Below are positions 4,031 to 25,490 of a stretch of 64,000 nucleotides of DNA, in pieces. Below the pieces are notes generated by a model. That model saw only the letters and a list, made by a program, of their open reading frames with translations. It was not told the DNA's origin and did no database searches. Made by a program: the position numbers and the translations under genes. Position 1 is the first letter of the stretch. The number at the start of each line of letters is the position of its first letter. Source of the DNA: Candidatus Moraniibacteriota bacterium (GTDB lineage Bacteria > Patescibacteriota > Minisyncoccia > Moranbacterales > UBA1568); NCBI GenBank assembly GCA_963743885.1, contig CAVURJ010000001.1, positions 204,949 to 268,948 on the forward strand, read 5' to 3'.

Positions 4031-5386
4031 ATGCTTTTCAACTTAAAAAAGCCATCCGTGGCGCAAATGGATAATAGTCAAATGCTGGATCTTCTTTCTG
4101 AGAGGAGTTCGGAAATTTTTGATTTTGTAAAAAAGGTTTCTAACGCTGAGTATTTATATTGGGATAATTTTCGCCATAAGGAACCATCGCCAAAAAACAT
4201 TTCTAAAGAATCACTGTGGATGCTTACGAAATTCATCAGAAAGGCACAATCTATCAAAACACCTATTAAGGATAAGGGCGGCAGTGTTTTTACTTGGTCG
4301 AAGCTGCAGTATTTCGAGCAGTTTTTCCATGAGCTTGATATGAATACCGGCGGAGGATTATTTGTTGAAAGCTCGGAAGTAAATAAAGCCAATAAGCAGA
4401 AGCTTATTTCCAGGGGGATAATGGAAGAGGCTATCGCCTCTTCCCAATTGGAGGGAGCTGCTACAAGCCGGCAAGCAGCCAAGAAAATGCTACGTGAGGG
4501 AAGAAAGCCGAAAAATCGATCCGAACAGATGATCGTGAATTCGTATCTTTCCATGAAATCGATTGAGGAAAATTATAAGGATAGAAAAATGACGGTAGAT
4601 TTGCTATTGGAGATGCATAGCATGATTACGTCGGATACTCTTGATTTAGAAGGAGAAAGGCCAAGGTTAAGAGGAAAAAAAGATCCAATCGTTGTGTCGG
4701 ATGATGCGACTGGTATCGTATATCACGAAGGACCGAATATGGCCTTTGTAAAAAATGAGCTTGAACGATTGGTTGAATTCGCGAATGATGAATTGGACAG
4801 CGGAGAGTTTATTCATCCAGTCATCAAGGCTATCATGCTTCACTTTTGGATGGGATATCTCCACCCGTTTACTGATGGCAACGGGCGGTTGGCTCGCCTT
4901 TTGTTTTATTGGTATCTTATGAAAAAAGGATACTGGGCTTTTGCGTATTTGCCGATTTCTAAGGTAATCAAGCGTTCACCAAAGCAATATATTATGGCGT
5001 ATGTGTACAGCGAACAGGATGATAACGATCTCGCATATTTCATAAATTACAATATCCAGAAAATTAAGCTTGCTATGAGAGAGTTTTTGGAATATAGAGA
5101 AAAACAATCAACAATGAATGTCCAGATGCGCAAGATATATGGTGTTCGATATCATTTTAATGATAGGCAGATACATTTGCTCCAGTATCTTTATGGGGAT
5201 GCTGACGGAGAAACGACGTTGTTTTCCCATATGAATGTGAACCAGGTATCAAAGATGACCGCGAGCAATGATTTGAAGAACCTTGTGAAAAAAGGATTTC
5301 TTATCCGTTCTAAGCGAGGAAGAAACGTGTTTTATTCTGGAACAGAGAAGATCGAAGAATTGTTCGAAACAAGAAAGAATGGATGA
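4031..5386 (+). CDS. Fic family protein (putative AMPylase/toxin)
   Basis: Canonical Fic motif HPFTDGNGRLARLL. The gene sits in AT-rich DNA. Start is taken at the ATG after the structured element; the ORF is open from 3989. Confidence 0.85.
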   Translation: MLFNLKKPSVAQMDNSQMLDLLSERSSEIFDFVKKVSNAEYLYWDNFRHKEPSPKNISKESLWMLTKFIRKAQSIKTPIKDKGGSVFTWSKLQYFEQFFHELDMNTGGGLFVESSEVNKANKQKLISRGIMEEAIASSQLEGAATSRQAAKKMLREGRKPKNRSEQMIVNSYLSMKSIEENYKDRKMTVDLLLEMHSMITSDTLDLEGERPRLRGKKDPIVVSDDATGIVYHEGPNMAFVKNELERLVEFANDELDSGEFIHPVIKAIMLHFWMGYLHPFTDGNGRLARLLFYWYLMKKGYWAFAYLPISKVIKRSPKQYIMAYVYSEQDDNDLAYFINYNIQKIKLAMREFLEYREKQSTMNVQMRKIYGVRYHFNDRQIHLLQYLYGDADGETTLFSHMNVNQVSKMTASNDLKNLVKKGFLIRSKRGRNVFYSGTEKIEELFETRKNG

Positions 5387-5418
5387 TGCTTGGCGTCGCA
5401 CCACTTCGGAAGGTCTAG
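5382..5418 (+). repeat. relic duplicate of the last 12 codons of pcrA (MMLGVAPLRKV*), a direct repeat of 3745-3781
   Basis: gatgatgcttggcgtcgcaccactt is identical at 3745-3769 and 5382-5405. The downstream codons are near-identical and carry their own TAG stop. Confidence 0.7.
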
Positions 5419-5472
5419 GAGAGAAAAAGAAAAGGCGGCTTCGGGTGAAGCCGCCTGGAGGTTTTGCAGATG

Positions 5473-6786
5473 TTACTGCGTGTCGATGCCGATCTCTCTC
5501 GGGTCGGTGATGAGGGTATTGCCCCATGCGATGCCTTTGAATCGGGGCAGGCCTTGTGGGAATGTATCGCGCATACGCATGATGAGAGAGCTGACGCGTT
5601 TTCCGGCAAGCAGTTTTTCGAGCTTACCCTCGTTTGCTGTGGCCGGGTAGTCCTTGATACGCATAGGTTTCCCGTATTCCATGTCCACGATCCGGATATG
5701 GGTCGCTTGGTGCACATGCGAACTGACGAAGGCGACTCCGTTGATGCGAGTGAGCAAATAAGCGACGCGGTGGGCTTTTTTCGGCGGTGGAGCCATCCGG
5801 AGGTAGCAGCCGTATTCGGGGAAGTTGTGTGCTTCAAGTAGCAAGCCGATCTTTTCGACGGCTATCTGCTTGAGAACGGCGCCCATCTGGATGTTGCAGG
5901 GCGTGAGCACTTTCGCTTCTACGATGGCGGCGCTTCCGATCGGATATATCTTCAGGTCTTCCATGGCGATGACACCTTGCATGTCCTCGACTGTTTTTTT
6001 GACCGCCGACTTCAGATCATCGCCGAGACTCTTCTGGATGAGCACGGAGTATCCTTTTTCGCCGAGCTCGTAGGCTACTCGGAGGATGAGGATGCCGGCC
6101 GCCAATCCGAACGGGTATTCGATCCAGGGAGCCTGGAAAAAGTACTCGCCGGATATCCCGATGAGAGCAGCGCTCTCGATGATGCCGTCGCTTCGCGTCT
6201 CTTGGCCGTCGGCTACGATGGATGGCTTTTGATGCTTGTGGCCGACCGCCATTTGGATCCTTGAGGCGACGAACGAGAGGGCGATGCTTGTCAGCACGAT
6301 GCATGCCAATACCGGGTACCAGCCGTTGAAAATAGCCGGGTCGGTATGCGTTTCGGGGACGAGGACGGAAGGTAGTGCTGCGAAGGCAGCTTTGGGGATG
6401 GAGTCCGCGAAGAATGTCTGTGCGATCCCTATGCCCGAACTACAGAAGATGGAAAGCCCGATTCCTCCGAGCAGGAACCCGATCAGGAGGACGAAGATGC
6501 TTTCAAGATTGCGCCGTCCGAACGGGTAGTCGCTGTTGCCGGTATCGCGGGCCAGTGATACGACGAGTATCACGAGGCTGGCTTCGAAGATATCCGAAGT
6601 ATTGTGGATGCCGTCGGCCCCTACGACGAGGGAACCGGCGAGCAGTCCGCCGACACCGCCTTTCAGGACGACCTTGAAGATGTACATCGTGATGACCGCC
6701 AGCATTACGCCGTGTGGCGTGAAGAGCGGCGGGATCCTTTTTTCGAGCCAGCTGAGCCAGCCCGAAGCGTATGGATGCGTTGACAT
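5473..6786 (-). CDS. cation diffusion facilitator (CDF) family metal efflux transporter with an extra ~130-aa C-terminal domain
   Basis: TM region with LVVGADGIHNTSD and HKHQ..DG motifs, plus a CDF cytoplasmic domain (GVIAMEDLKIY...LEAHNF). The extra C-terminal domain is of unknown type. Confidence 0.65.
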   Translation of the reverse strand: MSTHPYASGWLSWLEKRIPPLFTPHGVMLAVITMYIFKVVLKGGVGGLLAGSLVVGADGIHNTSDIFEASLVILVVSLARDTGNSDYPFGRRNLESIFVLLIGFLLGGIGLSIFCSSGIGIAQTFFADSIPKAAFAALPSVLVPETHTDPAIFNGWYPVLACIVLTSIALSFVASRIQMAVGHKHQKPSIVADGQETRSDGIIESAALIGISGEYFFQAPWIEYPFGLAAGILILRVAYELGEKGYSVLIQKSLGDDLKSAVKKTVEDMQGVIAMEDLKIYPIGSAAIVEAKVLTPCNIQMGAVLKQIAVEKIGLLLEAHNFPEYGCYLRMAPPPKKAHRVAYLLTRINGVAFVSSHVHQATHIRIVDMEYGKPMRIKDYPATANEGKLEKLLAGKRVSSLIMRMRDTFPQGLPRFKGIAWGNTLITDPREIGIDTQ

Positions 6787-6794
6787 GGGTTCTC

Positions 6795-7589
6795 CTATTC
6801 CAGATGGTGGAAGGGAAGGATGAGCAATGGAACTGATCCGACGAGCAGCTCAGCCAATTGTTCGGCGTAATCACCGAGGACGACTTCCGGATCGCGTACG
6901 ACGATGATGAGGCTTGCGTCGGTCCGGAGAGCGGCTTCAGCTATCCCGCGGACAACCGTTTCGTCGGTACGGACCGTCGTCTTGATGACGATATCGAGGT
7001 CCTCACCGGCTTTTTCGGCTGCCTGGATGATGTCGAGCGCTTTCTGGCTGATGTGGTCGGTCGGTTGATCTTCTGATACGTCGGGCTTCTTCCAGGTAGT
7101 GTGATACAGCGTGACCTGTCCGAAGTGGGGCAGGAGACGTCTGGAGAGGAAAAGGCCGCGGCGATAGGTCAGCGTCGCGAGTTCGTTGTCACCGAGCGGC
7201 AGGAGGATGCCCGGCTTTCCTTGGCGGAAGAGCGAGGTTTCGTTCTGCGGCGCGAGAATCGCATGCGATCGGACGTCTGCGATATGTGCATTCGAAACGA
7301 TGAGATCGTTCGGCTGCAAGAGCGAGACGGCATGCTTGAGCGAACCGTCGTATCCGAGGATCTGGACCTGTTTCGGATGATAGCCGGACCTGTCCAGTAT
7401 TCGACGGACATCTACCAATATGGGGTAGTCGGTTTTCCGAAGCAGTCCTATCTTGGCAGCTGCTTGCGAGGCTTGTGACTGGCTCATCGTGAGAACGGTG
7501 AGTTCGACATCAAGCGTCATCGCGAGCGCTCCGGCGTAGGCGATTTCGCTTTCTTTCCCGTAGAGGGCGATGATGCGATCGATAGTCAT
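6795..7589 (-). CDS. hypothetical protein, possibly a tandem universal-stress-protein-like fold
   Basis: Co-directional with and 9 bp upstream of the CDF gene. The C-terminus LIIVVRDPEVVLGDYAEQLAELLVGSVPLLILP weakly resembles a UspA C-terminus. Confidence 0.3.
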   Translation of the reverse strand: MTIDRIIALYGKESEIAYAGALAMTLDVELTVLTMSQSQASQAAAKIGLLRKTDYPILVDVRRILDRSGYHPKQVQILGYDGSLKHAVSLLQPNDLIVSNAHIADVRSHAILAPQNETSLFRQGKPGILLPLGDNELATLTYRRGLFLSRRLLPHFGQVTLYHTTWKKPDVSEDQPTDHISQKALDIIQAAEKAGEDLDIVIKTTVRTDETVVRGIAEAALRTDASLIIVVRDPEVVLGDYAEQLAELLVGSVPLLILPFHHLE

Positions 7590-7889
7590 TTCTGACTCCT
7601 TTCTGATGGAGAGAGTAGGTTGGTAAAGGACTGCGTATCCTATCGGAAACGCAGGGGGGTGTCAATGCTCGGATCCTCAGAGTTTCATATCGAGACAGGC
7701 GCGTCTGGCGTGCTGACGAAAAAAATCGTCAATAATATGATTTTGTAGGTCGGATATTTCCGCTTAGAGAGGGGAATATCCGGCGGACCTATCCGGATGC
7801 GTATCAGAAATCAGCCCGGTGTGGCGCATCATGTGGGTATCGCCTCTACACTGACGGTGTGTTCGTTGACAACTGAAAAGGAGGGAATC

Positions 7890-13418: not shown

Positions 13419-14264
13419 ATGGCAGCCAAAGCGAATGCATACAAGGGCCTCAAGGTGCACCTCATCGTCATCGATCCGCAGAACGACTTCATGGACAGTC
13501 CAGAAGCAGCTCTGCCGGTGCTGGGCGCAAACGCGGATATGCAGCGGCTGGCTGCGCTGATCGATCGGATCGGCGGCCGGCTCGATGATATTCACGTGAC
13601 GCTCGACTCACACCGCGTCATCGACGTCGGACATCCGGGTATGTGGCGCGATTCGGACGGCAACGTCCCGAATCCGTTCACCATCATCTCGGCGGCCGAC
13701 ATCGAGAGCGGCATCTGGGCGCCGCGCAATCCGGGTTTCCGGGCACGTCTTCTGGACTACGCCCGCACGCTCGAGAAGAACGGCAACTACCCGCTCATGG
13801 TCTGGCCGGAGCACTGCATTATCGGGACCCCCGGGCACAATGTCCAGGCGGACCTGATGGCAGCGCTCAAGCGCTGGGAACGACGGGAGTTCGCCAACGT
13901 CGACTACGTGGTCAAGGGCACCAACACCTTCACTGAGCACTACGGTGCTCTCCAGGCGGAAGTCCCCGATCCCGCAGATCCGACGACCACTCTCAACACC
14001 GGTTTCCTCGATGTTCTCGCGCAAGCGGACATCGTGGCGATCGCTGGCGAGGCGCTGTCGCACTGCGTGAAATCGACGGTCTCCCAGATCGCCGACAACA
14101 TCGGTCCCGAGCAGATCAAGAAGTTCCATATCTTGACCGACTGTTCGAGTCCGGTGTCGGCGGTTCCGGGTGGTCCTGATTTCCCAGCCATCGCGCAAGC
14201 GTGGCTTCGGGAAATGGAAGGCCGCGGGATGAAACTCGTGACCTCTGCCGATTTCCTGGCCTGA
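13419..14264 (+). CDS. pncA: isochorismatase-family hydrolase, probable nicotinamidase
   Basis: LIVIDPQNDFMD and a catalytic Cys in ALSHCVKS. Preceded by the NAD-regulon operator and RBS aaaggag. Confidence 0.6.
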   Translation: MAAKANAYKGLKVHLIVIDPQNDFMDSPEAALPVLGANADMQRLAALIDRIGGRLDDIHVTLDSHRVIDVGHPGMWRDSDGNVPNPFTIISAADIESGIWAPRNPGFRARLLDYARTLEKNGNYPLMVWPEHCIIGTPGHNVQADLMAALKRWERREFANVDYVVKGTNTFTEHYGALQAEVPDPADPTTTLNTGFLDVLAQADIVAIAGEALSHCVKSTVSQIADNIGPEQIKKFHILTDCSSPVSAVPGGPDFPAIAQAWLREMEGRGMKLVTSADFLA

Positions 14265-14300
14265 TATTTCTGGCCACTCTACAACGAAAGGAGAAACATC

Positions 14301-15053
14301 ATGCCGAGACTCAATCAGGAAGAAGGGATGGGCAGCCATCGGATCGGCGGCGGGAACTTCACCTTTACCGGTGCCCGCATCGATCAGTTGGGGGCGACCG
14401 AGTATACGCTCGTGACGGTGGCAGTCGATGTCACCGGATCGACGGCGCGGTTTGCCGATGATCTGCGGGCGATGCTCGTGACGGCGGTGGAAGCCTGCAA
14501 GAAGTCGCCGCGTTCGGACAACCTGCTCCTGCGGGCCATCACGTTCTCGACGGCAGTCGGCGGCGTGAGCGAACTGCACGGCTTCAAGCCGCTGGCAGAA
14601 ATCGATCCGAACGCGTATCCGGTATTTTCTCCGGATGGGCTGACACCGCTCTACGACGCGGTCTACTCGTCGGTCGGAGCGATGACGGAATACGGCGAGC
14701 AGCTCATGCAGAATGACTATCTCGCCAACGCCATCGGCTTCATCATCACCGACGGGCTGAACAACGCCGGGACAGCGACGCCCAAGATGATCCGTGACGA
14801 GATCGGAAGTGTGGCGGCCAAGGAACGGCTCGAATCGCTCGTGACGATCTTGATCGGGATCAACGCGGCCGAGTATGAGCGGGAGCTCCGCGAGTTCCAG
14901 CACGAAGCCGGCATCGGGCAGTATATCGATGCGGGCGACGTGACCAAGGCGAAGCTTGCCAAGCTCGCTGACTTCGTTTCGCAGTCGGTATCCAGCCAGT
15001 CTCAAGCGTTGGGCACCGGCGGTCCGAGCCAGAATATCCAGGCCGTCATCTGA
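14301..15053 (+). CDS. vWA domain protein (TerY-like)
   Basis: MIDAS LVTVAVDVTGST. It is the first gene of a vWA / PP2C / kinase triad. Confidence 0.75.
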   Translation: MPRLNQEEGMGSHRIGGGNFTFTGARIDQLGATEYTLVTVAVDVTGSTARFADDLRAMLVTAVEACKKSPRSDNLLLRAITFSTAVGGVSELHGFKPLAEIDPNAYPVFSPDGLTPLYDAVYSSVGAMTEYGEQLMQNDYLANAIGFIITDGLNNAGTATPKMIRDEIGSVAAKERLESLVTILIGINAAEYERELREFQHEAGIGQYIDAGDVTKAKLAKLADFVSQSVSSQSQALGTGGPSQNIQAVI

Positions 15054-15131
15054 TGGTCCGGAGTACGGGGCGGCAGGAGATCTCTCCTTCCGCCCCTTTT
15101 TTTCTTCGAAGTGTATGAGAGGAGAGAAATC

Positions 15132-16052
15132 ATGGATATCAGGAATGCTGACCAGTATTTCCACATCGGATACTCGCATCTCATCGCGGGGAAACCGTGC
15201 GAGGACTACGCGCTCTCTGACATCTACGGAGAAGCGGCGGTAGCGATAGTGTCCGACGGCTGTTCGACCGGAGCCCATACCGACATCGGCTCGCGCATCG
15301 TGGCGCTCTCGATGGCGGGGGCGGTCCGCGATCAGTTGTCTGGCGGGAAGGGTTTGTCCGGCAGCCAGTCGGCGCGGGAGATCCGCAAGCGTCGCGGAGA
15401 GATCATCGCGGAGAGCAAGAGCATCCTTGGTCTCGAGGATCGGAATTTGCTCGCGACCTCTGTCGCCGCGGTATCTGCTTCACACGGCGCGATGGTCTTC
15501 GTGGACGGGGATGGCGTCGTCGCCTTCAAGTATCGCGATGGACAGTCTGTCCTCTGGCGATTCGAATGGGACGGCAACATGCCTTTCTACCCCGCGTACA
15601 GCGGAGAAGACCAGGAGCGTTTCGTGGCGGCGCATGGGGGCGATCCGGCAGTGGTCCGTTTTCGGCAGTCCGTCTGGGTATGCGGAAGCGATGGCACGCT
15701 CGAGGATAAAGGAGAGCGGTTGTGGACGCTTGCGGAAGGGATGGCGGGCATCACGCTCTTCGTCCCAGGCTCGCATCTGTCTGCCGAGCTGGAATACATC
15801 GCGGTCTTTACCGATGGTGTCACCCAGATTGCGGAGACGGATTGGAAGGACGCAGCACTCGGATTTCTGTCCTTCAAGAGTACGGCTGGCGAATTCGCGA
15901 AGCGCCGGATGATGAGCGGACTCCGGGATCTGCGCAAGGCGGGACGGGAGCCGCTCGACGACATCGCGTATGCGGTGCTTCACTTCAACTCTGACGAAAC
16001 CAAGGAGGCGGATCATGGCACAAGCGAAGAGCAATCTCAAGGTAACGCTTGA
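15132..16052 (+). CDS. PP2C-family Ser/Thr protein phosphatase
   Basis: AVAIVSDGCSTGAHTDIGS, VFVDGDGVVAF, and AVFTDGVTQ match PP2C metal-binding motifs. RBS aggaga precedes ATG 15132; the ORF is open from GTG 15111. Confidence 0.6.
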   Translation: MDIRNADQYFHIGYSHLIAGKPCEDYALSDIYGEAAVAIVSDGCSTGAHTDIGSRIVALSMAGAVRDQLSGGKGLSGSQSAREIRKRRGEIIAESKSILGLEDRNLLATSVAAVSASHGAMVFVDGDGVVAFKYRDGQSVLWRFEWDGNMPFYPAYSGEDQERFVAAHGGDPAVVRFRQSVWVCGSDGTLEDKGERLWTLAEGMAGITLFVPGSHLSAELEYIAVFTDGVTQIAETDWKDAALGFLSFKSTAGEFAKRRMMSGLRDLRKAGREPLDDIAYAVLHFNSDETKEADHGTSEEQSQGNA

Positions 16053-17748
16053 AGGCCGCGGGACGCTCGTCCTCCGGCCAAGCGATCACATCGCGACGGG
16101 CGGGGAGGGTTCGGTATACCGTGCCGGAGGCATGGTCGTGAAGGTCTACACCGATCCAGCACATATGCAGCGGGATGATATGGCCGGCAAGATCAGGCTG
16201 CTTTCTGGCCTGAAGCATCCGTCCATCGTCGCGCCGCACGGATTGGCGCTCGGCCAGAGCGGCGAGCCGATCGGGTACTACATGCCCTTCGTCCCGGGCG
16301 AGCCGCTGACACGCGCATTCACGAACGATTTCCGTATCCGCGAGGGTTTCGGTGATCGGGAGACGAGGCAGCTCGTCGATCGGATGCGCGAGACGGTTCG
16401 GTTCGCCCATGGAAGACAGGCTATCCTCGTCGATGCGAATGAGCTCAACTGGCTCGTGAAGCCGGGCAGCAAGAATGGTCCCGAGCCGTACGTCATCGAC
16501 GTCGATTCTTGGGCGGTCGGTCGGTGGCCAGCGAAGGTCATCATGCCATCCATCCGTGATTGGCAGTCAAAGGGATTCGACGAGGGGACGGACTGGTTCG
16601 CCTGGGGAGTTGTCACCTTTCAGGTGTTCTCAGGCATTCATCCGTACAAGGGCAGTCTGGATGGGTATAAGCGCGGTGATCTGGAAGGCCGGATGCGGGC
16701 GAAGGCTTCGGTCTTCACGCCAGGCATCGGGCTCAACCAGGCAGTGCGGGACTTCTCGTCCATTCCTGGGCCGCTCCTCAATTGGTATGAGGCGGCGTTT
16801 CAGGGGAGCGAGCGGTCAGAGCCGCCATCGCCGTTTCAGACCGGAGCACCGACAGCGAAATTGGCTCCGGTACGGCGAGCGGTCGCGACGGCCCAGGGAC
16901 TACTCGTCTACGACAAGTTGTTCGATGGCACGGGCGATCCGGCGATCAGAGTCTTCCCTTCCGGTGTCGTCATGACCAAGAAGGGGCGGCTCATCGACCT
17001 CTCCACGAAGCGTGAGATCGGGCAACCGCTCTCACGTGACGGCGAGGTCATCCGGGTGGAGGGCGGCTGGCTCAAGGCGGACTGGAAGGGCGGGCAGGCG
17101 GAGTACTCATTCGTCTCGAACACCCTTTCCGAAGAAGCCGTCTCGGTCCAAGCGAGCGTCTATCGCGTCGTGCGAAGTAGCAATCGGATGTTCGCAGTGA
17201 CGGACACGGGCCTCACCGAGCTCACCGTGCGTCTGTTCGCTCGCCCAGTGCTCTCGCTCGGACGGACATGGGGCGTCATGCGTCATGCTCTCCGGTGGTT
17301 CGACGGTGTGGGCGTGCAGGATGCTCTCGGGGCGATGTATCTCGTCGCACCGTTCGGCACCGAAAGCTGCGCGTACGTGCGGGTACCCGAGCTCGACGGG
17401 CTCCGGGTGATCGCTGCCAAGGCCGGGCATCGTTTCGTCTCAGCCATCGCGGCCGATGTGAACGGGATGTATCGGAAGCTCGAGTTCGCATTCGATAGCG
17501 AGTACCGGAGCTATACGCTGTGGCAGGGCGTGACGGATGATCCGGATCCCAATATCGCCATCCTGCCCAAGGGAGTGTGTGCCACGATTGTGGAGGACGG
17601 TGAGCTCGTCATCTTCGTCCCGGCGAACGGCCAGACGAACAAGGTGAAGGATCACCGCATCACGACCGCTCTCGCCCTCGCCAACTGGGAGGATCGAGTG
17701 GTCTACGTCTCCCAAGGCGAAGTGTGGCAGGTGCGACTCAAGCAGTAG
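16015..17748 (+). CDS. atypical protein-kinase-like protein with a ~300-aa beta-rich C-terminal domain
   Basis: GGEGSVYRA glycine loop, VKVY, HGRQAILVDANELNWLV catalytic-loop-like, IDVDSWAV, and DWFAWGVVTFQVFSGIHPY. RBS aaggagg precedes ATG 16015. The start overlaps the PP2C gene end. Confidence 0.6.
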   Translation: MAQAKSNLKVTLEGRGTLVLRPSDHIATGGEGSVYRAGGMVVKVYTDPAHMQRDDMAGKIRLLSGLKHPSIVAPHGLALGQSGEPIGYYMPFVPGEPLTRAFTNDFRIREGFGDRETRQLVDRMRETVRFAHGRQAILVDANELNWLVKPGSKNGPEPYVIDVDSWAVGRWPAKVIMPSIRDWQSKGFDEGTDWFAWGVVTFQVFSGIHPYKGSLDGYKRGDLEGRMRAKASVFTPGIGLNQAVRDFSSIPGPLLNWYEAAFQGSERSEPPSPFQTGAPTAKLAPVRRAVATAQGLLVYDKLFDGTGDPAIRVFPSGVVMTKKGRLIDLSTKREIGQPLSRDGEVIRVEGGWLKADWKGGQAEYSFVSNTLSEEAVSVQASVYRVVRSSNRMFAVTDTGLTELTVRLFARPVLSLGRTWGVMRHALRWFDGVGVQDALGAMYLVAPFGTESCAYVRVPELDGLRVIAAKAGHRFVSAIAADVNGMYRKLEFAFDSEYRSYTLWQGVTDDPDPNIAILPKGVCATIVEDGELVIFVPANGQTNKVKDHRITTALALANWEDRVVYVSQGEVWQVRLKQ

Positions 17749-17897
17749 CAGTATACCGGGGAATGGCTGAAACTAGCCTTCCCCGGATTTTTTTGTGACT
17801 ACGCGCTATTGACAGGATGGTATTTGCGTGATATTTTTATCCGTTATTTAAAAATTTTTACAACCACGCAGGATCCTTCAAGAAAGGGAGGAATGTC

Positions 17898-19052
17898 ATG
17901 GAAGTAGTGTACGCGAAAGAAAAGGCCCCGGAGGGGTATACGAAGTCGCTGTTCTTGGCTGGGCCGACCCCTCGCGATGCCTGGGTATCGTCTTGGAGGC
18001 CGGAAGCACTGGCAATCCTCGAAGCGAGCGGCTATGACGGCGTCGTCTTCGTTCCTGAAGCACGCGATGGCAAGTGGGCGAAGGGATACGAGGATCAGGT
18101 GGAATGGGAAGAGAAGCATCTCAACATGGCGGACTGCATTGTTTTCTGGGTTCCCCGGGAGATGAACACCATGCCGGCCCTGACCACCAACACCGAATGG
18201 GGCGTATGGCAGGATAGCGGCAAAGTCGTTTTCGGCGCCCCGGAGCATGCCGAGAAGGTCCGTTACCAGATCTATTACGCCAACCAGTTCAAGGTGTCCA
18301 TCAGTAGCAGCATCGAGGATACCATTCGGAGCGCGTTGTCGTTCATCGGCGAAGGCGTTTTGCGGTCTGGTGGCGAAAGAGATGTCCCTCTTTTCATCTG
18401 GAAGACGCCTCATTTCCAAGCGTGGTATTCCGCGCAGAAGAATGCGGGCAACAGGCTGGATGGTGCGAGGGTAGTCTGGACGTTCCGTGTAGGACCCAAC
18501 AGGAATTTCGTTTTCTTCTGGGCTCTCCACGTTGACGTCTTCATCGCCAGTGAGAACCGCAACAAGACCAACGAAGTCGTCCTTTCCAGGCCGGATATAG
18601 CGACTGTTGTGATGTATCGGCGAGCGGTGACGCTCGAAGAGACGACGGTCGTCTTGATCCGGGAATTCCGCAGTCCGGCGGCGACTGTCGACGGCTATGT
18701 CTGGGAAATACCAGGCGGGTCGTCATTCAAGCCGAAGGGCAATCCTCTGGAGTTGGCGGCGGCGGAATGCGAGGAGGAGACGGGACTGAGCGTGGATCCC
18801 ACACGGGTTTCTTTCCATAACGTACGCCAGCTCGTGGCGACGCTCTCTGCCCACAAGGCGCACGTATTTTCTGTCGAGATCACCTCGGAGGAAGTCGCTG
18901 CGCTTGAGGAGCAGAAAGGTATTCCGCACGGGGTACTGGAGGACACGGAAAGGACGTATGTGGAAGTCACGACCCTCGGCGAAATCCTCAAGCAGAACAA
19001 GGTCGACTGGTCCATGCTCGGGATGATCCTCTCCGTCATCAACCAGCGATAG
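17898..19052 (+). CDS. fusion of a nucleoside 2-deoxyribosyltransferase/DNPH1-like N-glycosidase domain and a Nudix hydrolase
   Basis: N-terminal flavodoxin-like region LFLAGP...YDGVVFVPE...EWEEKHLNMADCIVFWV...TEWGVWQDSGKVVFGAPE. C-terminal Nudix box GGSSFKPKGNPLELAAAECEEETGL. RBS aagggagg is upstream. Confidence 0.6.
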   Translation: MEVVYAKEKAPEGYTKSLFLAGPTPRDAWVSSWRPEALAILEASGYDGVVFVPEARDGKWAKGYEDQVEWEEKHLNMADCIVFWVPREMNTMPALTTNTEWGVWQDSGKVVFGAPEHAEKVRYQIYYANQFKVSISSSIEDTIRSALSFIGEGVLRSGGERDVPLFIWKTPHFQAWYSAQKNAGNRLDGARVVWTFRVGPNRNFVFFWALHVDVFIASENRNKTNEVVLSRPDIATVVMYRRAVTLEETTVVLIREFRSPAATVDGYVWEIPGGSSFKPKGNPLELAAAECEEETGLSVDPTRVSFHNVRQLVATLSAHKAHVFSVEITSEEVAALEEQKGIPHGVLEDTERTYVEVTTLGEILKQNKVDWSMLGMILSVINQR

Positions 19053-19077
19053 TTATCTGGCGAACTAGCCAGACGAA

Positions 19078-19116
19078 CCCCATAGGCTGCAAAGCTTATG
19101 GGGGATTTTTTTATGA
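19078..19116 (+). terminator. rho-independent terminator
   Basis: The sequence ccccataggctgcaaagcttatggggg is followed by attttttt. Confidence 0.55.
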
Positions 19117-19240
19117 AAATATTAGCGTACCTGGATCATGTGCGTTTTTTGTTTGGGAGGAATATACTTGGGGTAGAAGTAGAAAATGTGGTCACCCCCC
19201 ATCCATTAGGGGAAACTAGCTCTAAGGAATAAAGAAAGAC

Positions 19241-19927
19241 ATGGGAGTAAATCTAAACGAAAATAAACTCCGAAAAGCTGAAGTAGAGGCTTTCAAAAAT
19301 GGCATCAGGCTACATTTTGATGCCATTAAGCTTTTTGAGAATAAATCGTATCCCAGCGCCTATGCCCTATCGGTTTTATCTTTGGAGGAATTCGGAAAAC
19401 AACGTCTAATTGATGAAATACTCTTTCGTTACATTGAGCATAAGGGAGAATTTGAAAACGATAAACAGTTTACTGATTTTTGTAAGGATTTTGAAAACGG
19501 GATGTTAAGTCATTCTTTGAAACAGGGATTTGCTGTATCAGACGATTTTCCGTTCATGAGGGGACGTAACAGAATGCAGAGAGGATTTTTATATAAAATG
19601 TTTAATCACAAGAATGGAAGGAAATTGATTGATGGTTGGAAAATGAGATCAATTTATGTCGGGTTTGAACACAATAGCTTAAAAGGGAGAATACAAACAC
19701 CGCTAAGCTTTATTAAGAGAAAAAAAGCACAAGATCAAATAACCGCCATAAATGATTATTTAGTAAATTTTATAATTTACCTTAGACAAGGCAGATGGAC
19801 GCTCGATAATGAAAATCTTATGAGGTTTTATAACACCAATCTTTTGAATAAACTCGTTGATATTTGGAAGAACAGACATGAGGACACTAGAAGCAGGCTA
19901 GATACCTTTTTGAGTTCTCGGAAGTAA
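19241..19927 (+). CDS. AbiV-like abortive-infection protein (tentative)
   Basis: AIKLFENKSYPSAYALSVLSLEEFGKQ is reminiscent of the AbiV-family N-terminus. First gene of a low-GC island. Confidence 0.3.
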   Translation: MGVNLNENKLRKAEVEAFKNGIRLHFDAIKLFENKSYPSAYALSVLSLEEFGKQRLIDEILFRYIEHKGEFENDKQFTDFCKDFENGMLSHSLKQGFAVSDDFPFMRGRNRMQRGFLYKMFNHKNGRKLIDGWKMRSIYVGFEHNSLKGRIQTPLSFIKRKKAQDQITAINDYLVNFIIYLRQGRWTLDNENLMRFYNTNLLNKLVDIWKNRHEDTRSRLDTFLSSRK

Positions 19928-20050
19928 TAATTGGTTAATGATTTTTTTGCTAATTTTTTGTTTGAATTGATTGCGTGATATAGTAAAGGCAGTTGACAAA
20001 GGTAAGAGATTTTTATTATAGGTAGCTAATTAAGGCCATAAAATATTTTT

Positions 20051-20563
20051 ATGATAAATGTAAATAAAATAAACGATATATTAGGATTTTTTTCGGACAA
20101 TGTTTCGGATCTAACTGTTACTAAGATAATGAAGTTATTTTATTATGTTGATTTTGTTTCTTTTGCAGAAAAAAATACTTCTGTTACAAACGATGTTTAT
20201 TATAAGCTTCCTTACGGTCCAATTCCCTCTTTTATTAAAAACGAGATCAACACTCTGACTTTCAAAACCATGCTTGGAGCAGAGGCTGGAGATTTGCAAA
20301 TTTCAAAAAATTTCGGAGTGGAACAGAAAAAGATAGGCAAGTATGATGCTTATGTTGTTAAAAATAATGGAAAAAAGAGTTCTCTTGAGAACTTATCTGG
20401 TTATGAGGTAGAACTCATAAAAAGGATATTAAATAAGTTTGGAAAGAAAACGGCAAAGGAACTAACTGATCGTACTCACAAAGAGAAACCATATCTTTTG
20501 ACAAATGAAAATTCAATTATTGATTATAAACTTGCTAGTTTTCTTAATACCAGTTCTATTTAA
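20051..20563 (+). CDS. Panacea-domain (DUF4065, SocA-like) protein, a putative antitoxin
   Basis: TKIMKLFYYVDFVSFAEKNTSVTNDVYYKLPYGPIPSFI matches the Panacea/DUF4065 pattern. Confidence 0.55.
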   Translation: MINVNKINDILGFFSDNVSDLTVTKIMKLFYYVDFVSFAEKNTSVTNDVYYKLPYGPIPSFIKNEINTLTFKTMLGAEAGDLQISKNFGVEQKKIGKYDAYVVKNNGKKSSLENLSGYEVELIKRILNKFGKKTAKELTDRTHKEKPYLLTNENSIIDYKLASFLNTSSI

Positions 20564-20568
20564 CAAGT

Positions 20569-21117
20569 ATGGGAGACTACGGGTTTGGCGATGTTTATGA
20601 TTGCAGAAATGTTCCAGAAGTGGAACATTTTATTGTTATATTAGGATTTCAGGAAATTAAGGGGAAGAAGATTATATTTTATGAAAAAGTAACTTCACGA
20701 GTTTATAAAGCCTTCAAGAAACTCAGTGATTTTTTTGAGGGTAACTGTAATGGGCAATGCAAGAAGTTCAAGCATAATTTCAAAGATAAGACCCCCATTT
20801 TCCATTACGGGAAATTATGCTTTACGTTATTTTTAGATAAGGACGAAAACTATCTCAATGAAGATAGCATGGTTGTGATAAAGGGTGATCCAGAGAAGAC
20901 GGACGAAACTATTATGGAGCAATGGATTAAGGCCGGACTAGCTAAATCGAAAACGAGAATTTCAAATGTAGACATTTATAAGTTAATGGCTATATTAAAT
21001 AACTCGGATAATTTAAGTAGTCCAGTAATCCATCATATCCGTCTCGCCTTTAGTGGGGTTGATAAAATGATAAAGATGCAAAACCTTCAGAAGGCTAGTA
21101 AGAAAAAGAAGAAATAG
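20569..21117 (+). CDS. hypothetical protein, candidate toxin partner of the Panacea protein
   Basis: Starts 6 bp downstream of the Panacea gene on the same strand. No recognisable domain. Lys-rich tail. Confidence 0.4.
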   Translation: MGDYGFGDVYDCRNVPEVEHFIVILGFQEIKGKKIIFYEKVTSRVYKAFKKLSDFFEGNCNGQCKKFKHNFKDKTPIFHYGKLCFTLFLDKDENYLNEDSMVVIKGDPEKTDETIMEQWIKAGLAKSKTRISNVDIYKLMAILNNSDNLSSPVIHHIRLAFSGVDKMIKMQNLQKASKKKKK

Positions 21118-21158
21118 TGGTTTGTAAAAAGAAGAAAAGGGAGAAGAAAAGGGGTCAA

Positions 21159-21240
21159 GTACCTTTTTAAGAAAGAAATGACACACCCGAGGCGCGGGAA
21201 GAATCTTTCATGACGGATCGGTCCGGCCCGCAGCATCGCA
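21159..21240 (+). repeat. island repeat copy A (~100 bp) with an embedded SD plus mini-ORF MTHPRRGKNLS* (21178-21213)
   Basis: About 85% identical to 22326-22432 and 23258-23367. Followed by hairpin terminators at 21286-21320. Confidence 0.6.
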
Positions 21241-21491
21241 AGACTAGAGAATGGGTTAAGTAGAACAATTTCCCCACTACAAAAAGTAACACGAAATGAC
21301 GGCCGTCGTTTCGTGTAACATTTTTGTTTTGATTTACCCTGTGAAATCCGACTTTGTCGGTCCGCCTACTGGCGGAATTTCACAGGGTGAATATTGACCG
21401 GTTTTCATGGCTGGATGTATACTTATATATGTAAGTCATGTAAACATCTTGGTTACCTGAGAAGTTGGTAACGGGATGAGCAAAAACAATT

Positions 21492-22299
21492 ATGAAAAAG
21501 ATAGAAGTGCAGGGGATTGAGATAGCCATAGTCTCTCAAAAAGAGCATGACTATATCTCTTTGGCTGATATGCTGAGAGCGAAAGATGGGGATTTCTTCA
21601 TATCTGATTGGCTGAGAAATAGGAATACGGTCGAATTTTTAGGAATCTGGGAACGGATTAATAACCCGGATTTTAATTATGGCGAATTCGCCATAATTAA
21701 AAGCCAAGCAGGGCTCAATAGCTATAAAATCAGTGTTAAGGAATGGGTGAAGAAAACGAGGGCTAGGATTGAAATCAACAGCCGGACGATATGGCGGAAC
21801 TTTCGCTCATAAGGATATTGCCTTCGAATTTGGTATGTGGATATCGCCGGAATTCAAGTTGTACCTTATTAAGGAGTTCCAGCGACTGAAAGTTGAGGAA
21901 AATGAAAGACTGATACTAGGTTGGGACGTGAAGCGGATGCTGACGAAGATGAACTATAAGATTCATACGGATGCGATAAACGAGAACATTGTCATTCCAC
22001 AGAAACTGTCGCAGAAGGATGCGAATATGACGTATGCGAATGAGGCGGACGTTTTGAATATGGCGCTTTTTGGCATGACAGCGAAAGCCTGGAGAGATAA
22101 GAATAGGAAAAAGGAAGGGAACATGCGGGACTATGCTGATGTGACGCAGCTCGTGTGTCTCGCCAATCTTGAGGGGTTGAATGCGGAGTTCGTCAGGATG
22201 GGAATGACGCAAAAAGAACGATTGCTCAGGTTGAATGAGGCAGCGATAGCGCAGATGAAATCGCTTTCGGGAAACAAGAATATCCGGAAGTTTCTATAA
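21492..22299 (+). pseudogene. KilA-N domain protein interrupted by a frameshift (ORFs 21492-21812 and 21769-22299)
   Basis: N-part ISLADMLRAKDGDFFISDWLRNRNTVEFL and C-part GGTFAHKDIAFEFGMWISPEFKLYLIKEFQRL together form one KilA-N domain. The two frames overlap at 21769-21812. Confidence 0.55.
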
Positions 22300-22325
22300 G
22301 AATTGAGAAGATAAGGAATCGAACG

Positions 22326-22432
22326 CCTTTTCAAGGAAGAAATGATGCATCCGAGGCGTGGGAAGGATCTTCTGTGACGAATCGATCCGGTCCGCAGCAT
22401 CGCGGGAGCAGGGGAATCTGAATATCACCCAG
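22326..22432 (+). repeat. island repeat copy B with mini-ORF MMHPRRGKDLL* (22342-22377), followed by a terminator
   Basis: See copy A. Downstream aaaacagccctgtctagagctgtttttt is a terminator. Then comes the palindrome gttaactattgactatatagttaac. Confidence 0.6.
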
Positions 22433-22553
22433 TAAAACAGCCCTGTCTAGAGCTGTTTTTTGTATCGAGAAAGAAAGTCTTGTTAACTGCTGTAGTGTAA
22501 GTATTCTATTGTTAACTATTGACTATATAGTTAACATATGTTAACATAAGGAT

Positions 22554-22808
22554 ATGGAAAAACAATTCTATACAACCAAAGAGATTTCGGAGTTGCTTGG
22601 CGTTAGCCGAGTGACTGTTTTCAAACAGATCAAATCTGGAAAGATTAAGGCTCAGAAAGTCGGGCGTAACTATATCATCCTCAAAGAGGACATGCCGGAA
22701 ATGCTGAACAAATCGTTGAAAGAATTTGATAAATCGAATATTCAGGATGCAGTGAAAAAAGTGGTAGACGAGTACAGCGAGACCCTTAAGCTTCTTGGGA
22801 AGGAATGA
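22554..22808 (+). CDS. HTH (excisionase/MerR-type) DNA-binding protein, putative Phd-like antitoxin
   Basis: YTTKEISELLGVSRVTVFKQIKSGKIKAQKVGRNYII HTH. Its stop overlaps the start of the Doc gene. Confidence 0.6.
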   Translation: MEKQFYTTKEISELLGVSRVTVFKQIKSGKIKAQKVGRNYIILKEDMPEMLNKSLKEFDKSNIQDAVKKVVDEYSETLKLLGKE

Positions 22809-23269
22809 GAATAAAGCAGATCTCAATCGTAGAGGTGGAGTATGTGGCGCATCGTCTTGCGCAGGAGACGATGAAGTGGAGCGAGCCCATACCTGATTTC
22901 AGCACTCGTTATCCGAGAGTGCTTGAGAGCTGTCTCGCAGCTCCTTTTCAGACATTCAGTCGGAAAGTTTTGTATAAAGGTCTTCATGGAAAAGCCGCCA
23001 TGTTGTTTTATCTGATGGTGAAGAACCATCCTTTTGAGAATGGAAATAAGAGGATTGCGATGACAACACTTCTTTATTTCCTGTATAAGAACGGGAAATG
23101 GATCAAAGCGGATGAAATGGAGTTTTATAATTTCGCGAGATGGGTGGCTGAGAGCAGCCCGAAGTTCAAGGATGAGACTGTTGCGGCTGTTCGGAAATTC
23201 GTTACGACTAATATGATAGACGTCGCTACTCAAGCATTAGAAAAGAAAGAGGATCGAGTACCTTTTTAA
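22805..23269 (+). CDS. doc: Doc (death-on-curing) family toxin (Fic fold)
   Basis: Doc variant motif HPFENGNKRIAMTTLLYFLYKNG. Translationally coupled to the upstream HTH gene. Confidence 0.8.
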   Translation: MRIKQISIVEVEYVAHRLAQETMKWSEPIPDFSTRYPRVLESCLAAPFQTFSRKVLYKGLHGKAAMLFYLMVKNHPFENGNKRIAMTTLLYFLYKNGKWIKADEMEFYNFARWVAESSPKFKDETVAAVRKFVTTNMIDVATQALEKKEDRVPF

Positions 23270-23367
23270 GGAAGAAAAGATGCATCCGAGGCGCGGGAAG
23301 AATCTTCCATGATGGATCGGCCCAGTCCGCAGTATCGCGGGAGCAGGAGAATCTGAATATCACCCAG
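23258..23367 (+). repeat. island repeat copy C with mini-ORF MHPRRGKNLP* (23280-23312)
   Basis: The repeat begins inside the last codons of doc (RVPF*), which means it supplies the doc stop codon. Confidence 0.6.
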
Positions 23368-23469
23368 CAAAACAGCCTTCATTTGAGGATTGTTTTTTGT
23401 TCCCTGCAATGGATGTTCTGATTAGGTGCTTAAAAATGGCTTGATATAAGGACATTGTGCATATACTGG

Positions 23470-23579
23470 GAAAATATGTAAAAAGTAGTGAATATTGTTA
23501 TATTTATGAGTAAATTCACTAAATATTGACAAAAAGTAGTGAATATACTACAATTAACGCATACTATTCACTAAAAAAT
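23470..23579 (+). promoter_or_regulatory. promoter (TTGACA 23526-23531, TACAAT 23549-23554) flanked by AGTAGTGAATAT / ATTCACTAAA inverted and direct repeats
   Basis: aaaaagtagtgaatat occurs twice, and attcactaaa occurs twice in inverted orientation to it. This looks like an operator architecture upstream of the Fic gene. Confidence 0.45.
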
Positions 23580-24461
23580 ATGGCAATCACTCAACCGATT
23601 AAGAATCGTATCCAAGCGTTGAAGAAGGAGTTTGATGCCTTGAAAAAAGGAAGGGAATCGCTTTTGGTGCTGCTTGATGAAGCCGAGATTCCGGAAAGCG
23701 TCTATAATTCCAACGCTATTGAGAATTCGACGCTTACGCTCAAGGAGACGGAGAAGATCCTACTTGATGTATCGGTGTCGCGCGACGTATCGGTGCGGGA
23801 AGTTTTTGAGACGAAGAATCTCGCTCGCGTCATCAACTATATCCGCACGAAATCCCAAGGAAAAGAGATCGATAGGGAAATGGTCCTGCTGTTGCACCAG
23901 ATGCTCATCGGGGGCATCAAAGATGAAATCGCGGGACGCTTCCGGACAAAAGGGGAGTATGTCCGGGTAGGAACATATATTGCTCCGGCACCGGAGCATG
24001 TAGAGCTGATGATCGCTTCAATCTTTTCTGGATACGAAAGCGAGCATGATTCGTATTTTCTCGATAAGATGGCAAAGTTCCATCTGGACTTTGAGAATAT
24101 CCATCCATTCTGCGATGGCAACGGCCGCATCGGTCGGGTGCTTGCCTGTTACCAATTGCTTCGATTGGGATTTCCTTTGATTATCATTCGGGACAAGGAA
24201 AAGGAAATGTACTACCAGGCATTTGCTGATTATCGCGATGGAAAGAATACGAAGACGATGGAAAAGGTGTTTTCGCTGGCACTTACGGAATCACTGTATA
24301 AACGCATTACGTATTTGAAGGGAGAAAAAATCATGACACTCGCTGACTATGTGAAGAAACACAAAAAATCAGCCGCTGCCATGTCGAATGCTGCTCGTCG
24401 TCAGAACATACCAGCTTTCCGCGAAAAGGGCGTTTGGAAGATCGGGGAGAAGTTTAGATGA
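23580..24461 (+). CDS. Fic family protein
   Basis: HPFCDGNGRIGRVLACYQL. Start is taken at MAITQPIKN; the TTG at 23526 in the ORF track is the -35 box. Confidence 0.85.
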   Translation: MAITQPIKNRIQALKKEFDALKKGRESLLVLLDEAEIPESVYNSNAIENSTLTLKETEKILLDVSVSRDVSVREVFETKNLARVINYIRTKSQGKEIDREMVLLLHQMLIGGIKDEIAGRFRTKGEYVRVGTYIAPAPEHVELMIASIFSGYESEHDSYFLDKMAKFHLDFENIHPFCDGNGRIGRVLACYQLLRLGFPLIIIRDKEKEMYYQAFADYRDGKNTKTMEKVFSLALTESLYKRITYLKGEKIMTLADYVKKHKKSAAAMSNAARRQNIPAFREKGVWKIGEKFR

Positions 24462-24483
24462 AATTAAGAGTCGGAGCGTCCAG

Positions 24484-24520
24484 CAAAACAGTCCTCATCC
24501 GGGGGGGGGCTGTTTTTTTG
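24484..24520 (+). terminator. rho-independent terminator at the right edge of the low-GC island
   Basis: The sequence aaaacagtcctcatccgggggggggctgttttttt. Confidence 0.55.
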
Positions 24521-24607
24521 TCTGAAGCGTTTGTCATTGACCGCGGTGGGCATCTGATGTAGGCTGTTCTTTCGAAGTTCTTTGATTACGATAGTGGAGG
24601 ATGAGTC

Positions 24608-25276
24608 ATGAAAGCAGCGATTCTGACCGGTTTTGAGGTCTTTGGGAAGTACGCGGTCAATCCGACGGAGATCCTGGCGAGGTCTCTGGCAGGGGAGGTC
24701 GTCTCCGGGCACCTCATCCGTTCGATGGTTTTTCCTACGACGGTGCTTGTGCCGCATGGAGCGAGAGATGCTGGAACCCTGATCGTCGACGAAGCTTTTC
24801 TGGTCGACGCTTCGGTGATCATTTCTCTGGGCATAGACTCTGGAGCCAGGGGCGTGCGTATCGAAAGGACTTGCATCAATTGGGTGGAAAACGCGAAGTA
24901 CTGCACCCAATACGAGAATCAGAAGCCTCTCTCCGACGCGCATGATCCCAAGGAGAGGCTGCCGATGCCACTTCAATCATGGGATTTCGCAGGGTTGTCC
25001 GAGAGGTTGGCCCTAGCCGGCATTCCTTTGGAGACATCGGAAGATGCGGGCAGCTACTGTTGCAACGCGCTGATGTACAGGACACGCCGGTCCATGAAGG
25101 AGTGCTCGCTCGAGATACCGTTCATCTTCGTCCACGTTCCTTGCACCGAGGAAGCGGTGGCGGATATGCCCGATTTCGATCGCGCAAGCAAGGTTCTGTT
25201 CCACCAAGAGGATCTGGCAACGGTAGTGGAGAGCCTTCTCGAGTCGTACCTTCCGAATCCGCGAGTCGAGGACTGA
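24608..25276 (+). CDS. pcp: pyrrolidone-carboxylate (pyroglutamyl) peptidase I family
   Basis: MKAAILTGFEVFGKYAVNPTE N-terminus and a catalytic Cys in DAGSYCCNALMY. Confidence 0.7.
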   Translation: MKAAILTGFEVFGKYAVNPTEILARSLAGEVVSGHLIRSMVFPTTVLVPHGARDAGTLIVDEAFLVDASVIISLGIDSGARGVRIERTCINWVENAKYCTQYENQKPLSDAHDPKERLPMPLQSWDFAGLSERLALAGIPLETSEDAGSYCCNALMYRTRRSMKECSLEIPFIFVHVPCTEEAVADMPDFDRASKVLFHQEDLATVVESLLESYLPNPRVED

Positions 25277-25362
25277 AAGAATCAAGCAGCAGAGCCGCAG
25301 GGTATTACCCAGCGGCCTTTTTCTTTTAAAACAGCCCTTATTTGATTGATTTTTTCGGGTAC

Positions 25363-25401
25363 TTGACAGGAAACTATATAGTGTATATACTACACTTAGT
25401 A
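25363..25401 (+). promoter_or_regulatory. promoter TTGACA-17-TATACT with overlapping operator atagtgtatatactacacttagta
   Basis: Same motif as upstream of pncA-like and of pnuC. Confidence 0.5.
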
Positions 25402-25490
25402 ATGAGATAGGGAAGTTCTTTGTCAAACGAGGCATTTCAGGGGAGGCCGGGGTCCGGCTTCATGGATATCATCGATACGAGGAGGCGATC

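Follow-up and report, generated by a model that had tools for sequence, protein, structure and literature searches.

The panA-panT gene pair and its relatives

Two adjacent genes, here named panA and panT, lie in a 64,000-nucleotide stretch of a Candidatus Moraniibacteriota genome (contig CAVURJ010000001.1, positions 204,949 to 268,948 of the forward strand). This whole stretch is referred to as the window, and coordinates are positions within it unless another locus is named. The two genes are on one strand with a gap of 5 nucleotides, which places the panT start 6 nucleotides after the panA end.

20051 to 20563, + strand: panA, 170 amino acids (aa), ATG start, TAA stop at 20561 to 20563; predicted antitoxin
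20564 to 20568, + strand: spacer of 5 nucleotides between the panA stop and the panT ATG, an operon-type junction read off the sequence
20569 to 21117, + strand: panT, 182 aa, ATG start; predicted toxin, probably an endoribonuclease

The panT product has a Lys-rich tail that ends in QKASKKKKK. An earlier note, written from the sequence alone, had described, at 20051 to 21117, a gene followed 6 bp later by a 182-aa open reading frame (ORF) with a Lys-rich tail, all of which agrees with the ORF list and the sequence. It had further assigned a Panacea domain to the first product, found no recognisable domain in the second, and proposed the architecture of a PanA-PanT toxin-antitoxin (TA) pair in which the toxin may be novel.

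PanA matches the Pfam profile PF13274 (SocA_Panacea) with an E-value of 3.5e-18 and a score of 67 bits, against a gathering cut-off of 25.7. The match spans PanA residues 26 to 148 and profile positions 1 to 112 of 113. PHROG 1281 and PHROG 10390 also match. The Panacea assignment, which the earlier note had named as open to refutation by a profile search, therefore holds. Because no domain besides PF13274 and no extra N-terminal domain is present, PanA is a standalone Panacea (SocA-like, DUF4065) protein. Mutagenesis by Ernits et al. showed that standalone Panacea neutralises its toxin directly, and that in multidomain PanAs the extra domains neutralise (PMC10440598). By analogy with these standalone proteins, direct toxin binding would be the default expectation for PanA.

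A word-indexed search of 5.8 billion proteins returned 12 relatives of the 182-aa protein that are 60 to 100% identical to it. An exhaustive profile search (E ≤ 1e-3) that covered 1.84 billion cluster representatives placed the PanT family in 29 clusters, with nearly all full-length members between 167 and 212 aa. The family is rare and compact. One homologue comes from a Candidatus Moranbacteria metagenome-assembled genome (MAG). The 12 close homologues and distant family members were combined in a 35-sequence alignment, which was used for the structural and profile comparisons below.

Contigs were inspected for nine family members. Five of these (P0012, P0007, P0005, P0010, and P0004) are 60 to 80% identical to the window PanT and three (P0017, P0027, and P0034) are 31 to 37% identical. 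The contig of the ninth, P0013, has too little upstream DNA and was left out of the adjacency count. The loci compared are labelled L001 to L009 and L011 to L014 and carry eight partner proteins, which are 31 to 100% identical to the window PanT. A PanA gene or its remnant lies directly upstream of the partner, on the same strand, in 12 of the 12 loci with enough upstream DNA. The upstream Panacea genes encode 169 to 176 aa, with the exception of L013, where a 73-aa remnant has a faint Panacea match. The gap between the two genes is 5 to 8 nucleotides in the nine loci measured. The flanking genes vary by locus and include primase-helicase, DnaG zinc-ribbon, ERF and YqaJ recombination genes, DpnII and Dam/N6_N4 restriction-modification genes, Mrr, or ordinary metabolic genes.

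Kurata et al. in 2022 defined PanAT pairs in silico as genes no more than 100 nucleotides apart, kept in at least two species, and not part of a longer operon (PMC8832971). In the present case PF13274 is above threshold, the gap is 5 nucleotides on the same strand, and the pair recurs amid differing flanks. The proposed PanA-PanT architecture is thus upheld in silico by the Panacea domain, the short same-strand junction, the upstream PanA at every locus counted, and the parallel divergence of the two proteins. The identities to the window proteins are as follows.

L007 (P0004): PanA 78%, PanT 80%
L005 (P0005): PanA 73%, PanT 74%
L004 (P0007): PanA 78%, PanT 69%
L006 (P0010): PanA 63%, PanT 63%
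L001 (P0012): PanA 65%, PanT 60%
L011 (P0017): PanA 52%, PanT 37%
L012 (P0027): PanA 48%, PanT 33%
L014 (P0034): PanA 51%, PanT 31%

As judged from these identities, PanA and PanT diverge in parallel. Synonymous differences are saturated (proportion of synonymous differences, pS, 0.62 to 0.88), while the nonsynonymous proportion (pN) stays at 0.11 to 0.45 across both genes. For panA alone, pN is 0.12 to 0.35 against a pS of 0.62 to 0.88. Because pN stays low where pS is saturated, both genes are read as expressed proteins under purifying selection. This contrast, together with an adjacency that recurs in unrelated contigs, indicates that panA and panT are not chance ORFs.

Two side observations concern the pair. 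In the distant pairs PanA retains 48 to 52% identity to its window counterpart, compared with 31 to 37% for PanT, so that the antitoxin is the better conserved partner and the usual type II pattern is reversed. At L008 (positions 4415 to 7789 of that locus) a tandem arrangement is found: a DpnII fragment, PanA, and a 182-aa PanT are followed by a DpnII fragment, PanA, and a 227-aa PanT variant. This variant is 81% identical to the window PanT over 171 residues and has a different C-terminus. The tandem reflects either a real duplication or an error of assembly.

Predicted fold and candidate active site of PanT

PanT has no match in Pfam (E ≤ 0.1), NCBIfam, or PADLOC, and a single chance-level match in PHROGs (E = 0.097). 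As far as these profile searches reach, the absence of a recognisable domain claimed in the earlier note is borne out. There is no significant sequence match in the PDB, and none to any MazF. When the 35 family members were scanned, every weak Pfam match was confined to a single member. No PanT was found among GenBank phages, PLSDB plasmids, or IMG/VR contigs, and a BFVD viral structure search returned nothing informative.

Two candidate assignments were rejected. The best PDB sequence match, to the p300/CBP bromodomain (E of about 0.1), spans 23 residues at the TSRVYK helix and is put down to chance. A Cys-based zinc site was considered on the basis of C12, C60, C64, and C84, which are invariant in the 12 close homologues, and was rejected because these cysteines vary in the wider family.

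A first AlphaFold2 model of PanT, built from the 12 close homologues, had a predicted local distance difference test score (pLDDT) of 70.5, with residues 59 to 101 below 50. With the 35-sequence alignment, the pLDDT rose to 91.5 and the predicted template modelling score (pTM) was 0.84. The five models ranged from 83.5 to 91.5, and no segment was below 50. In a Foldseek search of the PDB with this model, ranks 1 to 46 are all MazF-type (MazF/EndoA/YdcE/MoxT) endoribonucleases. They include proteins of S. aureus and E. coli, B. subtilis EndoA/YdcE, B. anthracis MoxT, and M. tuberculosis MazF-mt1 and MazF-mt3. The Foldseek probability is about 1.0 for the best matches, and the template modelling score normalised by target is 0.42 to 0.72.

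The predicted model has the barrel of MazF and Kid with a C-terminal helix. Its strands (residues 8-12, 20-30, 33-42, 86-89, 100-103, 109-112, and 126-130) and its helix (133-144) follow the MazF order. Three additions are seen: a helical insertion of about 40 residues (about residues 44-85), a short helix (113-121), and a basic C-terminal helix (151-181). On the strength of the model, the fold of PanT is very probably MazF-like. Structure prediction of the 182-aa protein had been put forward in the earlier note as a check, and it yielded a confident model with MazF-type proteins as the best 46 PDB matches. The suggestion of a novel toxin fared less evenly: the sequence family is undescribed and very rare, which agrees with it, whereas the predicted fold, MazF/PemK, is of a class already known with PanA.

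The fold was cross-checked at the level of sequence profiles. When PanT was compared by single-sequence hhalign with the MazF of B. subtilis or of E. coli, no usable result was obtained. A homologue search with B. subtilis MazF listed only sequences at least 94% identical, and a PDB-verified set was used instead. The resulting MazF alignment consists of five PDB-verified MazF/Kid sequences (4me7, 4of1, 3nfc, 1m1f, and 5hk0) and three Bacillus homologues. Against it, the 35-member PanT alignment gave a 53-column local alignment with a score of 20.6 (P = 0.015). Column-shuffled PanT alignments score 10.0 ± 2.1, and one of 150 shuffles reaches 20.6. The alignment pairs TLFLDKDENY..LNEDSMVVI..PEKTD of PanT with THVEIDAKRY.GFERDSVILL.IRTID of MazF, and the helix NVDIYKLMAILNNS of PanT with DDEMMDKVDEALQIS of MazF, C-terminal helix to C-terminal helix; D99-S100 falls on D72-S73.

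The N-terminal halves align weakly (P 0.02 to 0.05) and are colinear with the fold. In this region GDVY pairs with GDVY, P16 with P15, and K47 with K53. H20-F21 pairs with R25-P26 past a 6-residue deletion in the β1-β2 loop (P 0.02 to 0.04), and VT42S43R with IT48AQ. Each of these sequence signals is marginal, and all are in the register predicted by the fold. Five residues are invariant in the 35 PanT sequences (G7, H20, S43, F88, and S100) and eleven are near-invariant (D8, G26, Y46, F49, F67, F71, L83, D99, P108, D135, and S146).

In MazF, Arg25 has been proposed as the general acid/base and Thr48 as the transition-state stabiliser (B. subtilis and B. cereus numbering), and mutating either severely reduces activity (PMC7354611). 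Natural variants are known, with Lys in M. tuberculosis MazF4 and Ser in MazF7 (PMC7354611). The catalytic Arg is located where strand 2 begins (Arg25 in the B. subtilis protein, Arg29 in that of E. coli). In the predicted PanT structure, His20 would stand at the start of strand 2 in place of this Arg. Thr42 aligns weakly with the catalytic Thr48, and the adjoining, invariant Ser43 would lie with it where strand 3 ends, the site of the transition-state-stabilising Thr in MazF. Because of these placements of His20 and Thr42/Ser43, PanT is proposed to catalyse a metal-independent transesterification of RNA like that of MazF, with a His acid/base.

The proposed mechanism is as follows. The two genes would be co-transcribed as a two-gene type II TA module. 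PanT would be a highly divergent MazF/PemK-fold toxin, most likely a metal-independent endoribonuclease, that cuts cellular RNA and so arrests translation. PanA would neutralise it by direct protein-protein binding, as other standalone PanAs do. That the two genes form a genuine TA-type pair is considered likely. That PanT is an RNase is narrowly favoured. The statement as a whole, a PanAT module with a divergent MazF-fold toxin, is judged reasonably probable.

The same barrel can serve a different activity. MazF, Kid, and CcdB share one fold, and PanT could be a MazF/CcdB-type barrel that is not an RNase and acts on another target, with PanA still the antitoxin. Such a target could be DNA gyrase, as for CcdB, the ribosome, or the membrane by way of the basic helix. 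The missing catalytic Arg fits this possibility, as do the insertion and the 30-residue basic helix, which have no counterpart in MazF. In the part of Dataset S1 of Kurata et al. that concerns cluster T5, CcdB also comes after MazF in the HHpred lists (PMC8832971). In the Foldseek search, by contrast, the best 46 structural matches are all MazF-type RNases and CcdB is not among the top 50, and the conserved TS(R/K) and DS motifs of PanT pair with the catalytic Thr and the DS strand of MazF. CcdB ends in a gyrase-binding Trp-Gly-Ile, which the PanT C-terminus does not resemble. A non-RNase barrel is therefore rated improbable relative to the endoribonuclease.

Several points weigh against a PanAT module with a MazF-fold toxin. 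None of the 35 family members matches Pfam PF02452 (PemK_toxin), even at E ≤ 5. The first, 12-homologue model gave no MazF match, only weak partial matches to Tudor/chromo structures. In the search with the second model the Foldseek E-values begin at 2e-3, none being ≤ 1e-3. Because these E-values are weak and the hhalign probabilities low, the link to MazF rests on a predicted structure and weak sequence signals. PanT lacks the canonical catalytic Arg: the invariant His20 is at the aligned place, and no Arg is invariant in the family. The assignment of His20 and Ser43 to an active site derives from the weak alignments (P 0.02 to 0.05). With a pI of 9.2, PanA is basic, which most type II antitoxins are not. 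In the panel of Kurata et al., 8 of 25 predicted PanTs were non-toxic in E. coli and 5 were toxic without rescue (PMC8832971).

The last result bears also on whether the pair is a TA system. A conserved pair of another kind can be envisaged, in which the 182-aa protein is a non-toxic nucleic-acid-binding or regulatory partner, or an effector active only against phage, and PanA is a sensor or regulator. Of the predicted PanTs that were tried in E. coli, about a third proved non-toxic (PMC8832971), and Ernits et al. suggest that sensing is the main role of Panacea (PMC10440598). The module stands amid defence genes (AbiV, restriction-modification systems, and Mrr), and in distant pairs PanA is more conserved than its partner. 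Against such a pair stand the strict two-gene co-inheritance with a junction of 5 to 8 nucleotides, a predicted fold that is a classical toxin fold, and invariant polar residues at MazF active-site positions. It is regarded as unlikely, and the TA module is preferred.

The low-GC island and its direct repeat

The region from 19000 to 24500 has a G+C content (GC) of 30 to 47%, compared with about 55 to 64% in the genome. The panA-panT module itself has a GC fraction of 0.32 against about 0.6 in the flanking genome, and its GC is 26 to 36% in all loci, whatever the GC of the host contig. The genes around the module are listed below.

13419 to 17748, + strand: four-gene block (two proteins without a Pfam match, a PP2C phosphatase, and a 592-aa protein with faint kinase similarity)
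17898 to 19052, + strand: nucleoside 2-deoxyribosyltransferase-like/NUDIX fusion, 384 aa, at the high-GC edge of the island
19241 to 19927, + strand: AbiV (HEPN abortive-infection protein; PF18728, E = 2.4e-17; TIGR04498, E = 1.1e-16)
21492 to 21812 and 21769 to 22299, + strand: split KilA-N in overlapping ORFs, with profile positions 2 to 59 in the first and 67 to 105 in the second
22554 to 22808 and 22805 to 23269, + strand: HTH_17 (excisionase-type) and 154-aa Fic/Doc, overlapping by 4 nucleotides
23526 to 24461, + strand: 311-aa Fic protein, separate from the Fic/Doc gene

The inserted stretch contains the 2-deoxyribosyltransferase-like/NUDIX fusion, AbiV, PanA-PanT, the split KilA-N, HTH_17/Doc, the 311-aa Fic protein, and a pyroglutamyl peptidase. 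The KilA-N split is probably a frameshift, a pseudogene, or a sequencing error, and HTH_17/Doc is probably a second TA pair of the island. The fusion gene has no counterpart in the syntenic loci of relatives and may serve in defence by targeting nucleotides.

The closest genome locus, found by a search with NAPRT, belongs to a Candidatus Moraniibacteriota MAG (71% identity). In this MAG and two more distant ones (L015, L016, and L017), the upstream four-gene block is followed by NAPRT within 1 to 2.8 kb, and the order of the block beside NAPRT is conserved in all three. In the window, the distance from the kinase-like gene to NAPRT (17749 to 25490) is 7.7 kb and is filled mostly with low-GC defence and TA genes. 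Because the module keeps its own low GC in all loci and lies in a 7.7-kb insertion between conserved genes, it is read as horizontally acquired into a variable hotspot. The module is taken to be mobile, as its GC stays near 30% at every locus and its neighbours in other contigs include restriction-modification, primase-helicase, and recombinase genes. Its role would most likely be island stabilisation, abortive-infection defence, or both.

Putative expression signals flank the pair.

19993 to 20022, + strand: possible promoter (TTGACA, 18 nucleotides, TATAGG) in the 123-nucleotide AbiV-panA spacer; weak, putative
21289 to 21316, + strand: terminator-like hairpin and T-run (12-bp stem, 4-nucleotide loop, T-rich tail)

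A consensus promoter scan did not report the first site, and promoter-like sites in the region are no commoner than in shuffles. The hairpin is the first terminator-like site on the + strand 3' of panT; such sites number six in the region, against 1.7 expected.

A direct repeat of about 115 nucleotides is present in three copies, the first of which flanks the panA-panT module.

21141 to 21262, + strand: copy 1, after PanT
22305 to 22420, + strand: copy 2, after KilA-N
23240 to 23355, + strand: copy 3, after Doc

The copies are 75 to 82% identical (nhmmer E 1e-34 to 1e-36) and have a GC of about 0.5 within low-GC DNA. Each lies directly after the last gene of its cassette and is followed by a hairpin and T-run (21289 to 21316, 22433 to 22461, and 23368 to 23396). 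No further copy exists in the window, and Rfam has no match. The fold energies are no better than those of shuffles on either strand (z −0.6 to +0.8). The 21-nucleotide core of the repeat is absent from genome and viral collections, and five metagenome matches are chance matches restricted to the 21-nucleotide seed. An integron attC site would be expected to form an imperfect hairpin, stable as a single strand, with RYYYAAC and GTTRRRY cores, and to have an IntI integrase encoded nearby. This identity was rejected for the repeat, which lacks fold stability, has the GTTRRRY core in one copy only, and has no integrase in the ten flanking ORFs scanned.

Each copy also contains a mini-ORF of 10 or 11 codons on the + strand (21178 to 21213, 22342 to 22377, and 23280 to 23312), with the products MTHPRRGKNLS*, MMHPRRGKDLL*, and MHPRRGKNLP*. 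A purine-rich AAGGAAG or AAGAAAG precedes each, and two differences in the HPRRGK core are synonymous. The mini-ORF could be a conserved micropeptide or reflect mere nucleotide conservation, since the conservation runs past the stop codon.

AbiV lies 123 nucleotides upstream of panA on the same strand, with no terminator-like site between them, and the repeat that follows other island cassettes is absent from this spacer. The arrangement would suit a three-gene AbiV-PanA-PanT system in this genome, with the HEPN protein as a functional third component. No AbiV-like gene is present upstream of PanA in the other loci, however, and AbiV has been described as a single-gene abortive-infection system. 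A functional three-gene system is considered very improbable here. AbiV as a conserved third gene is not supported, as the genes upstream of PanA differ in every locus.

Relation to known systems

Kurata et al. list 88 PanT clusters, several of which (T5 and T6) are MazF-like by HHpred only, and MazF-like PanAT pairs of P. moraviensis and B. ruminantium have been validated experimentally (PMC8832971). In the NetFlax network, MazF/PemK ranks with the commonest toxin folds (PMC10440598). MazF-like toxins are already documented as partners of PanA, so that a cryptic toxin of the MazF fold beside PanA belongs to a known kind and is not a new toxin type. New here are the sequence family, the insertion, the C-terminal helix, the Arg-to-His change, and the distribution in metagenomic and Candidate Phyla Radiation (CPR) contigs. 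The part of the Kurata dataset examined contains no CPR taxa (PMC8832971).

The closest known relatives are the T5 and T6 PanAT pairs. These share the two-gene layout with the antitoxin first, a standalone Panacea protein directly upstream of the toxin. The toxins of both groups lack a domain-profile match (NCBI CDD for T5 and T6; Pfam and NCBIfam for PanT), and their MazF-likeness was recognised by more sensitive methods. In the portion of the published data that covers them, T5/T6-type toxins reach 99% HHpred probability to MazF (PMC8832971), whereas PanT is linked to MazF by marginal profile-profile signals and structure prediction. As far as the descriptions of those toxins go, PanT is also set apart by its helical insertion of about 40 residues, its long basic C-terminal helix, and its His in place of Arg. 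Unlike the T5/T6 pairs, the PanT family is seen only in metagenomic or CPR-type contigs.

PanT resembles MazEF, PemIK, and Kis-Kid (PF02452) in its predicted fold and in the order of its strands. Also in common are a first strand with GD(V/I)Y, a Thr/Ser where strand 3 ends, a DS strand, and a C-terminal helix. Going by the model, it is probably an mRNA interferase like MazF. It differs from MazF, PemK, and Kid by the lack of a PF02452 match, the invariant His for Arg, the short β1-β2 loop, and a length greater by about 70 residues. The antitoxin differs as well, being Panacea here and of the AbrB or ribbon-helix-helix type in MazE, PemI, and Kis. CcdAB has the MazF/Kid barrel in its toxin, with a different C-terminal region and antitoxin. 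SocAB of Caulobacter crescentus, the founding Panacea/DUF4065 pair, shares the antitoxin-side domain, PF13274, which takes its name from SocA. The target of SocB is the sliding clamp of DNA polymerase, and SocA is a ClpXP adaptor and not a tight inhibitor. PanT is unrelated to SocB.

A broader reading of the pair can be framed. Within the MazF fold, the PanT family would make up a new branch, catalytic or functional, in which the His, the insertion, and the basic helix give a substrate or an action unseen in known MazFs, and the standalone PanA, with its unusual degree of conservation, would be an infection sensor in CPR mobile elements. Ernits et al. suggest a sensor role for Panacea in general (PMC10440598). 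This is a speculative reading, to which only a small chance is given.

No long-standing question is opened or closed by the pair. For practice, it indicates that a PanA partner without a domain should be aligned in depth with its family and searched by structure before the toxin is called new, as 12 sequences failed here and 35 succeeded. With this finding the Panacea network gains one toxin cluster, and a family labelled hypothetical by every annotation pipeline is given a fold and candidate residues for an active site. The proposed Arg-to-His change would be a natural variant of the MazF active site that is open to mutagenesis. The TA and defence biology of the ultra-small CPR bacteria is almost unexplored, and the panA-panT module is a tractable TA or defence candidate from this group.

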